A stretch of 64,000 nt of DNA, from the NCBI RefSeq assembly GCF_056746865.1, contig NZ_CM163382.1; one strand, given 5' to 3'. The notes beneath the pieces are model-generated. The model was not told the origin of the DNA and did not search any database. It saw only the letters and a list, made by a program, of their open reading frames with translations. This document shows, one piece after another, positions 29,940 through 30,651 of the stretch. The translations under genes were made by a program, and so were the position numbers. Within the stretch, counting starts at the first letter, position 1. Each line of letters opens with the position of its first letter.

Positions 29940-30651
29940 ATAAATATCCTCCGGCATAGCCGGAGGTTTTTCAAATGCGCCTATAAGGCTCTCTTACCAG
30001 CCGCGCCCTAACAGGCGCACACGATCTGACATTTGCATCCAACTTCGTTACTTACGGCCCGTAAACGGGCTGCCCGGATAGGGAATCGATAACTGCTCTC
30101 CCATTTTATCCTCTTCAAGCTGGTGCTTTATGTAATCCTGTATCTTCGCCGTGTTCTTACCCACCGTATCGACGTAGTACCCTCTGCACCAGAACTCCCT
30201 GTTCCTGTATTTGAATTTCAAATCACCAAACTGCTCGTAAAGCATCAGACTGCTTTTCCCTTTCAGATATCCCATAAAGCCGGATACGCTCATTTTGGGC
30301 GGGATCTCCACAAGCATATGGATATGATCTGCACAGCATTCAGCTTCCAGAATCCGTACACTTTTCCACTCACACAGCTTTCTCAAAATACTGCCTATTG
30401 CTCTACGCTTCTCTCTGTAGAACACCTGTCTTCGGTATTTTGGCGCAAATACTATGTGATATTTACAGTTCCATCGGGTGTGCGCTAAGCTCTTTTCGTT
30501 CCCCATTGGGACCCCCTTTTGATTTCTTGTTTGACACTTGCAGTTGCCAGACCGCAAGGTGTTTTAACAAATCAAAAGGGGTTTTAATAACTGGCTTAAA
30601 GCTGAAAGCTTTCCGGAACCCCCAGCCTAGCTGGGGGTTTTCTGTGCACAA
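29940..30651 (-). mobile_element. IS200-family insertion sequence (IS200/IS605 family), ~712 bp
   Basis: Contains a Y1 (HUH) transposase ORF and terminal hairpins at both ends (CCCCCAGCTAGGCTGGGGG near the tnpA start; CCTCCGGCTATGCCGGAGG at the other end); boundaries inferred from where ypdA coding sequence stops and resumes. Confidence 0.8.
30048..30506 (-). CDS. tnpA: IS200 transposase TnpA (Y1 HUH transposase)
   Basis: 152-aa ORF MGNEKSLAHTRWNCKYHIVFAPKYRR... with the HUH motif context and catalytic-Tyr region typical of IS200 TnpA. Confidence 0.85.
   Translation of the reverse strand: MGNEKSLAHTRWNCKYHIVFAPKYRRQVFYREKRRAIGSILRKLCEWKSVRILEAECCADHIHMLVEIPPKMSVSGFMGYLKGKSSLMLYEQFGDLKFKYRNREFWCRGYYVDTVGKNTAKIQDYIKHQLEEDKMGEQLSIPYPGSPFTGRK

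Follow-up and report, generated by a model that had tools for sequence, protein, structure and literature searches.

The IS200 group of insertion sequences is sited behind terminators and seldom breaks genes. The locus analyzed here raises the question of how one such element came to lie within ypdA, a sensor kinase gene, and what its presence means for the pyruvate-sensing two-component system to which that gene belongs. The window referred to throughout is the whole stretch of DNA that was analyzed, 64,000 nucleotides of contig NZ_CM163382.1 (RefSeq assembly GCF_056746865.1). IS200C, the Escherichia coli form of IS200, belongs to the IS200/IS605 family of insertion sequences; it has a single gene and transposes as single-stranded DNA by "peel and paste." We are highly confident that IS200C genuinely transposed into ypdA at a terminator-like site, in an event both recent and private to the strain, and that it truncated the kinase, probably with a polar effect on ypdB. 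Inactivation, polarity, and recency are what we infer from the DNA sequence.

An IS200C element divides ypdA at codon 197

Direct reading of positions 29200-31900 found ypdA interrupted by a 712-bp insert. The gene runs as ...GTTGAGGGCGAA up to position 29939 and is picked up again by AAAGAGGCCAGC... from position 30652, and the insertion point is the boundary of codons 197 and 198. The parts of the interrupted gene are as follows.

29349-29939, plus strand: ypdA 5' fragment, codons 1-197 with a GTG start, carrying only the 5TM-5TMR_LYT membrane sensor domain
29940-30651, minus strand: IS200C, complete, 712 bp (712/712 identity), with its left end (LE) at 30651 and its right end (RE) at 29940
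30652-31758, plus strand: ypdA 3' fragment, codons 198-565 and the stop codon, carrying the GAF, His_kinase/DHp, and HATPase_c domains

In-silico excision of positions 29940-30651, exactly 712 bp, yields a single open reading frame of 565 codons (197 + 368) plus a stop. A 599-bp query over the repaired junction matched annotated, intact ypdA in a single piece at 599 of 599 positions in many genomes, and it was found at a coverage of at least 80% in 5,419 of the 5,426 complete E. coli genomes. The flanks of the insert are thus contiguous ypdA sequence.

A run of A residues at the junction leaves the boundaries ambiguous by 0 to 2 nt, such that 29938-30649, 29939-30650, and 29940-30651 are equivalent registers. 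At the ypdA site alone, an insertion without duplication looks the same as a 710-bp element that has duplicated 2 bp (AA) of its target. Another copy of the element (L002), which has GA and not AA on its right-end side, argues against the latter arrangement, and we rejected it. The 712-bp rule also held at the independent phoR-side site, where the empty site was restored at 500 of 500 positions; the top-ranked records in an empty-site search beside rnb all contained the IS. IS200C occurs only once within the window. Judged by its junctions, the event in ypdA is an insertion without target-site duplication.

Identity and anatomy of the element

The insert is 100% identical over 712 bp to elements annotated as "IS200/IS605-like element IS200C family transposase," of which there are at least 30 annotated copies, and 1,758 records have a best match to it of at least 99% identity. 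Its internal features are listed below.

30048-30506, minus strand: tnpA, encoding a 152-amino-acid Y1 HUH transposase with H61-I-H63 and Tyr125
30617-30639, minus strand: LE subterminal hairpin with a 10-bp stem and a 3-nt loop (DNA fold of -13.6 kcal/mol, z = -3.5)
30516-30639, minus strand: LE hairpin plus the tnpA 5'UTR stem-loop, matching Rfam RF01405 (STnc490) at 146.1 bits against a gathering score of 56
29948-29966, no strand assigned: RE subterminal hairpin of 8 bp, 7 of them GC (-12.9 kcal/mol, z = -4.5)

TnpA matches the NCBIfam model transpos_IS200 (NF033573) at 147.7 bits, where the cut-off is 55, and the Pfam model Y1_Tnp (PF01797) at 4.4e-38. The match to RF01405 spans the full model, and the left 142 nt, which include the 5'UTR stem-loop, fold with a z score of -6.5. 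The LE hairpin of this copy corresponds to the hairpin at nt 12-34 of IS200, which has been described as a bidirectional rho-independent terminator; the stem-loop at nt 69-138 of IS200 hides the ribosome-binding site, and the antisense small RNA art200/STnc490 lies in the same region (PMC4513863). The RE hairpin, CCTCCGGCATAGCCGGAGG, is followed on the plus strand by TTTTTCAAAT and was called on that strand by the terminator scan. On the top strand of the IS, the termini read TTGTGCACAG... and ...GGATATTTAT and, by eye, are not inverted copies of each other. A single open reading frame (152 amino acids) in an element of about 0.7 kb with a regulatory left end is likewise a feature of the family. 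In every respect that sequence can test, the insert is a member of the IS200 group.

These results bear out the structural claims of the original prediction, which had placed an IS200-type insert of about 712 bp inside ypdA, with a Y1 transposase frame on the opposite strand and hairpins at both ends. The transposase is on the minus strand and is recognized by both family models, and DNA folding recovered both hairpins. The prediction had also counted ypdA pieces that sum to 565 codons and proposed a clean insertion with no target duplication. Both points hold, with the predicted coordinates being one of the three equivalent registers, and the alignments to intact ypdA (599/599) and IS200C (712/712) that it had called for agree.

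Compared with the IS200C copies annotated by PGAP in RefSeq, the ypdA copy is alike in all 712 nt, the 152-amino-acid TnpA, the LE hairpin, the 5'UTR stem-loop, the RE hairpin, and the lack of visible terminal inverted repeats and of a duplication. It differs in location only: the four other E. coli copies examined are intergenic, while the copy in ypdA lies within a coding sequence.

Two observations concern the Rfam annotation of the element. The match to the STnc490 model is in the sense orientation of tnpA (IS nt 13-136, the minus strand of 30516-30639), and Ellis et al. 2015 place STnc490/art200 antisense to the 5'UTR, from nt about 153 to 64; the model and the published small RNA may therefore be on opposite strands. 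A match to the Yersinia small RNA Ysr202 at 29905-29971 on the plus strand falls below threshold (34.5 bits, where the gathering score is 315) and covers only the RE terminator hairpin, and a likely explanation is that the Ysr202 family ends in an IS1541/IS200-type hairpin. We dismissed this match, together with one to sR38 (E = 0.34), as noise or a shared terminator hairpin.

Other copies share a hairpin and a T-tract at the left end

The first clue to the choice of site came from alignments of other copies that extended past the left end. Beyond ...GTGCACAA, four other E. coli copies continue with a short A-rich stretch that leads into a perfect GC-rich hairpin. All four are intergenic, two of them just downstream of pepD and gorA and two beside the 3' ends and terminator hairpins of rnb and phoR. 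An exact scan for the left end, with one genome per species, found 25 loci, in Citrobacter, Kluyvera, Brenneria, Pluralibacter, Mangrovibacter, Entomohabitans, Kosakonia, Yersinia, and Raoultella, and a scan of viral contigs found 31 further loci. Besides ypdA, these gave 43 unique flanks: 26 from the four E. coli copies and other Enterobacterales and 17 from viral contigs. In each of the 43, the tnpA strand shows a hairpin and then a T-tract immediately 5' to the left end. The 45 nt upstream of LE have a mean fold energy of -17.8 kcal/mol over 27 flanks (the 26 and ypdA) and -16.6 kcal/mol over the 17 viral-contig flanks, against a background of -6.9 +/- 3.9 kcal/mol for the T-ending 45-mers of the window.

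The ypdA site has a counterpart to this arrangement.

30652-30691, minus strand: target-site mimic within ypdA codons 198-211, abutting LE

On the minus strand the mimic reads CCAGCGCC-(17 nt)-GGCGCTGG-CCTC-TTTTT, a perfect 8-bp GC-rich inverted repeat (arms at 30659-30666 and 30684-30691) and then a T-tract directly adjoining LE. Its fold energy of -21.7 kcal/mol is in the top 0.4% of the window's T-ending 45-mers. We also searched for perfect inverted repeats of at least 8 bp with at least 6 GC pairs within 10 nt of a T-rich position, criteria that were chosen after the ypdA site had been seen. On both strands of the 63-kb window, 57 of 6,869 T-rich positions pass, falling into 15 clusters. 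Of these clusters, only the ypdA site lies inside an annotated gene once the one at 62260 is reassigned; the script had placed that cluster in a long open frame, and by the annotation of strain 118UI it is the crr/pdxK intergenic terminator. The loop of the ypdA mimic is 17 nt, versus 3 to 6 nt at typical sites, and the terminator scan did not call it. Folded as DNA, the mimic does no better than its own GC-rich stretch after dinucleotide shuffling (z = -0.74). The ypdA hairpin is rare among the T-rich positions of the window, with no significance claimed for its composition, and it is a weak mimic.

The GC skew is -0.033, and Chi sites number 6 on the minus strand against 2 on the plus strand; the minus strand, which carries both the top strand of the IS and the target, is the G-rich and Chi-rich one. 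This asymmetry suggests that the minus strand is the lagging-strand template, and the orientation of the insertion would then agree with the lagging-strand-template rule established for the IS200/IS605 family. On the mechanism that we propose, the left end of IS200C would be joined immediately 3' to a GC-rich hairpin and T-tract in single-stranded DNA, and the antisense strand of ypdA codons 198-211 would offer such a terminator-like structure on the inferred lagging-strand template. A terminator mimic in this position would explain a rare in-gene insertion of IS200C. In its general form, the proposal is that IS200C chooses targets by DNA structure, a hairpin and T-tract made single stranded on the lagging-strand template, with terminators serving as a safe harbor and ypdA as a fresh, unselected insertion into a mimic. 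We give this proposal about an even chance of being correct.

IS200C resembles the family members IS608 and ISDra2 in its Y1 HUH transposase, its subterminal hairpins, and a left end placed 3' of a short target without duplication. IS608 and ISDra2 have a fixed target of 4 to 5 nt (TTAC, TTGAT) and need no target structure. The sites of IS200C, in contrast, consist of a hairpin and a T-rich tract with no fixed word, and IS200C has no tnpB. The pentanucleotide target of ISDra2 is mentioned in PMC2806898, and an orientation consistent with the lagging-strand template is a further likeness among these elements (PMC6006769). A close relative is IS1541 of Yersinia, a member of the IS200 group that also expresses STnc490. 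IS1541 insertions downstream of genes near terminator-like repeats were reportedly described by Odaert et al. 1998. Gene- and attenuator-disrupting insertions of IS1541 are also on record, for example between pheL and pheA (PMC3082878), and the pheL/pheA insertion would fit terminator-structure targeting by IS200-group elements.

A separate observation on the tnpA strand is that GAAAA precedes the LE hairpin (30640-30643) and GAAAAA precedes the RE hairpin (29967-29971). These motifs are complementary to the T-rich sequences at the cleavage sites, namely the target T-tract and the RE terminus ATTTAT(T). It is speculation, by analogy with the guide sequences of IS608, that GAAAA(A) might serve as a guide-like recognition rule.

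Abundance of IS200C and age of the insertion

Sequence resembling IS200C is present in 3,096 of the 5,426 complete E. coli genomes, at roughly 10,700 places in all, with a median of 1 place per genome and a maximum of 35. The expectation that IS200 is a low-copy element is thus only partly right for E. coli: the median agrees with it, but the maximum does not. The companion expectation, that IS200 rarely disrupts genes, fits the intergenic location of all four other E. coli copies examined.

The insertion in ypdA is far less widespread than the element. A 1.3-kb query across it was found at a coverage of at least 80% in none of the 5,426 complete E. coli genomes, the exact junction of ypdA and the right end had no match in the metagenome contig scan, and the 220-amino-acid truncated YpdA, looked up by exact sequence, had no entry. 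The window is closest to strain 118UI, isolated from urine in Mexico City. Between positions 4005 and 64000, the two differ by 2 mismatches and 1 gap in the 25.9 kb left of the IS and by none in the 33 kb to its right, a comparison of 59 kb that sets aside the IS, a 166-bp difference in a Val/Lys tRNA array, and the first 4 kb. The absence of the junction from other genomes and metagenomes, taken with the near identity of the rest of the window to 118UI, suggests that the insertion is private and recent. Since 118UI has 7 IS200C places, one of them 100% identical to the insert, donor copies exist in the clone. The sequence comparisons therefore suggest that the element moved recently from elsewhere in its own genome, in one strain or sublineage.

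One of the 118UI copies, at NZ_CP032515.1 477416-478127, lies about 1.5 kb from the phoR terminator site. The phoR site itself is empty in 118UI and occupied in strain CE0007a (copy L004), such that different terminator-type sites of one neighborhood are used in the two lineages.

The window also differs from 118UI away from the IS. Within positions 1-4080, the part upstream of a tRNA-Arg(CCT) gene (4006-4080) has no alignment to 118UI, which carries an integrase/exonuclease island at that position. The window has three large open reading frames instead: one at 523-1770 encoding an Asn/Asp-rich product of 415 amino acids, one at 1949-2704 (minus strand) that by eye resembles mlaA/vacJ, and one at 2998-3930 that by eye resembles yfdC. 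The two strains, otherwise very close, differ by the presence or absence of an island at this place. Positions 4260-11216 hold, per the 118UI annotation, the csc sucrose-utilization cluster (MFS transporter, kinase, cscA, and LacI-type repressor), beside a truncated dsdX pseudogene and dsdA and just after a DUF4942 fragment that adjoins tRNA-Arg; the region looks like the known csc/dsd replacement hotspot. At 50972-51369, the tRNA array runs Val(UAC) three times and then Lys(UUU), where 118UI has Val-Lys-Val-Lys. Positions 51048-51213 have no colinear match in 118UI, which indicates a rearranged tRNA array in an otherwise identical region.

Predicted consequences for YpdA and ypdB

The reconstructed gene is 100% identical to genes annotated as ypdA, and its product has the domain order expected of a LytS-type kinase: 5TM-5TMR_LYT at residues 28-192, GAF at 226-343, His_kinase (DHp) at 359-438, and HATPase_c at 456-553. 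The gene order alaC, ypdA, ypdB, ypdC, and a ptsP-like gene is that of 118UI. The break after residue 197 parts the membrane sensor domain from the GAF, DHp, and ATPase domains. The open frame of the 5' fragment continues into the IS to position 30011, giving a product of 220 residues, 23 of them foreign, and the 3' fragment is separated from the promoter and start codon of ypdA. With the sensor cut from the DHp and ATPase domains, no YpdA competent for phosphotransfer would be made, and kinase function is predicted to be lost. We also considered a functional C-terminal kinase fragment and judged it unlikely; its first in-frame start is a GTG at 30790, inside the GAF domain, and the terminator/promoter scan of the region found no promoter signal above chance for this fragment.

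Two regulator genes follow.

31773-32507, plus strand: ypdB, LytTR response regulator, sequence intact, starting 14 nt past the ypdA stop
32520-33377, plus strand: ypdC, AraC-family regulator, sequence intact

Both are included in positions 30650-51047, which are 100% identical to 118UI. Transcription of ypdA meets a canonical hairpin and TTTTT terminator at 29948-29975 on the plus strand. Transcripts from the ypdA promoter would end at this RE hairpin and T-run and then at the bidirectional LE terminator. With both lying between the ypdA promoter and ypdB, the insertion is probably polar on ypdB, reducing its expression, and the polarity possibly extends to ypdC. The art200 promoter points out of the left end toward ypdB and could supply some read-through. 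IS200 itself was discovered as a polar insertion, hisD984 of Salmonella Typhimurium (PMC4513863). That founding insertion is like the present one in placing IS200 inside a gene of an operon, and it differs in host, gene, and variant (707 bp in Salmonella, 712 bp in ypdA); its polarity was seen, whereas the polarity in ypdA is read from sequence. Of the original view that the YpdA/YpdB system is inactivated with ypdB and ypdC left intact, the truncation of the kinase and the integrity of both sequences stand; expression of ypdB is probably reduced through the IS terminators. In K-12, YpdA/YpdB induces yhjX above about 600 uM pyruvate (PMC5552118), and the expected phenotype would be loss of this YpdA-dependent, high-pyruvate induction. 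In uropathogenic E. coli, however, yhjX is reported to be driven by BtsS with the noncognate regulator YpdB (PMC9765748). Losing only YpdA may then leave yhjX inducible to some degree, depending on polarity: residual signaling from BtsS to YpdB would be set by the amount of ypdB still transcribed.

Alternative explanations

We weighed the preferred reading against several others, of which the least probable is that a repeat copy was misplaced inside ypdA during assembly. In favor of this reading, other public genomes and metagenome contigs lack the junction, and no record of the truncated protein was found. Both junctions are nevertheless base exact, the gene is restored on excision, and the element keeps its own rules (712 bp, a hairpin and T-tract at LE, and the inferred lagging-strand template), which a random misjoin would not; we regard an artifact as highly improbable. 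Scarcely more credible is a reversible switch, in which seamless excision by TnpA would restore ypdA and turn pyruvate sensing on and off. Exact excision would regenerate the wild-type sequence, tnpA is intact, and seamless excision is established for IS608 and ISDra2 (PMC2806898), but there is no evidence of mixed alleles, and we consider a switch very unlikely. A more serious possibility, one that we would not favor but keep in view, is that the insertion has little effect on yhjX, an internal promoter or read-through out of the IS keeping ypdB expressed and BtsS phosphorylating its product. Induction of yhjX in the uropathogenic E. coli (UPEC) strain UTI89 has been attributed to BtsS acting with the noncognate regulator YpdB (PMC9765748), the nearest relative of the window is a urine isolate, and a weak promoter-like site at 31361-31389 on the plus strand and the outward art200 promoter could each feed ypdB. 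Against this, ypdB is separated from the ypdA promoter by two terminator-type hairpins, polarity is a classic trait of IS200 insertions, the region has 5 promoter-like sites where shuffled sequence has 5.3, and in K-12 the induction is the work of YpdA/YpdB.

The remaining alternative concerns the site and not the event. The hairpin beside LE could reflect selection rather than targeting, if IS200C inserts at more or less any T-rich site and struck ypdA by chance. A statistical analysis in a 2025-26 preprint reports terminator-like sequences enriched just upstream of insertion sequences, most strongly for IS200/IS605, and reads the enrichment as limiting transposase expression and not as target choice (10.1101/2025.07.22.666184). 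On this view, only copies behind terminators would persist, because they do no harm and are protected from read-through. All four of the E. coli copies that we examined are old, shared, and intergenic, and shuffled sequences of like composition fold as well as the ypdA hairpin. What selection for harmless positions would not fix is the orientation, uniform at 43 of 43 sites, or the distance from hairpin to LE, which varies by a few nucleotides only. The one fresh in-gene insertion, which selection has had little time to filter, is also at a hairpin and T5 site, and sites in the hairpin and T-rich class amount to 57 of about 126,600 strand-positions in the window. We therefore think it unlikely that selection accounts for the site.

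Significance of the ypdA insertion

The element, its mechanism, and the disruption of genes by insertion sequences are already known; such disruption is routine, and the current understanding of the element is unchanged. The private allele is the exception. The association with terminators is not new either, and ypdA adds an unselected example that favors target choice over later selection as the reason why the IS200 group is sited behind terminators and seldom breaks genes. If structure-guided targeting is true, the few in-gene hot spots of IS200C would be predictable from sequence. For the host, the insertion would be a natural knock-out of one of its two pyruvate-sensing two-component systems, in a lineage near a urinary isolate, and the source strain and 118UI offer an isogenic-like comparison for yhjX regulation and for cross-talk between BtsS and YpdB.
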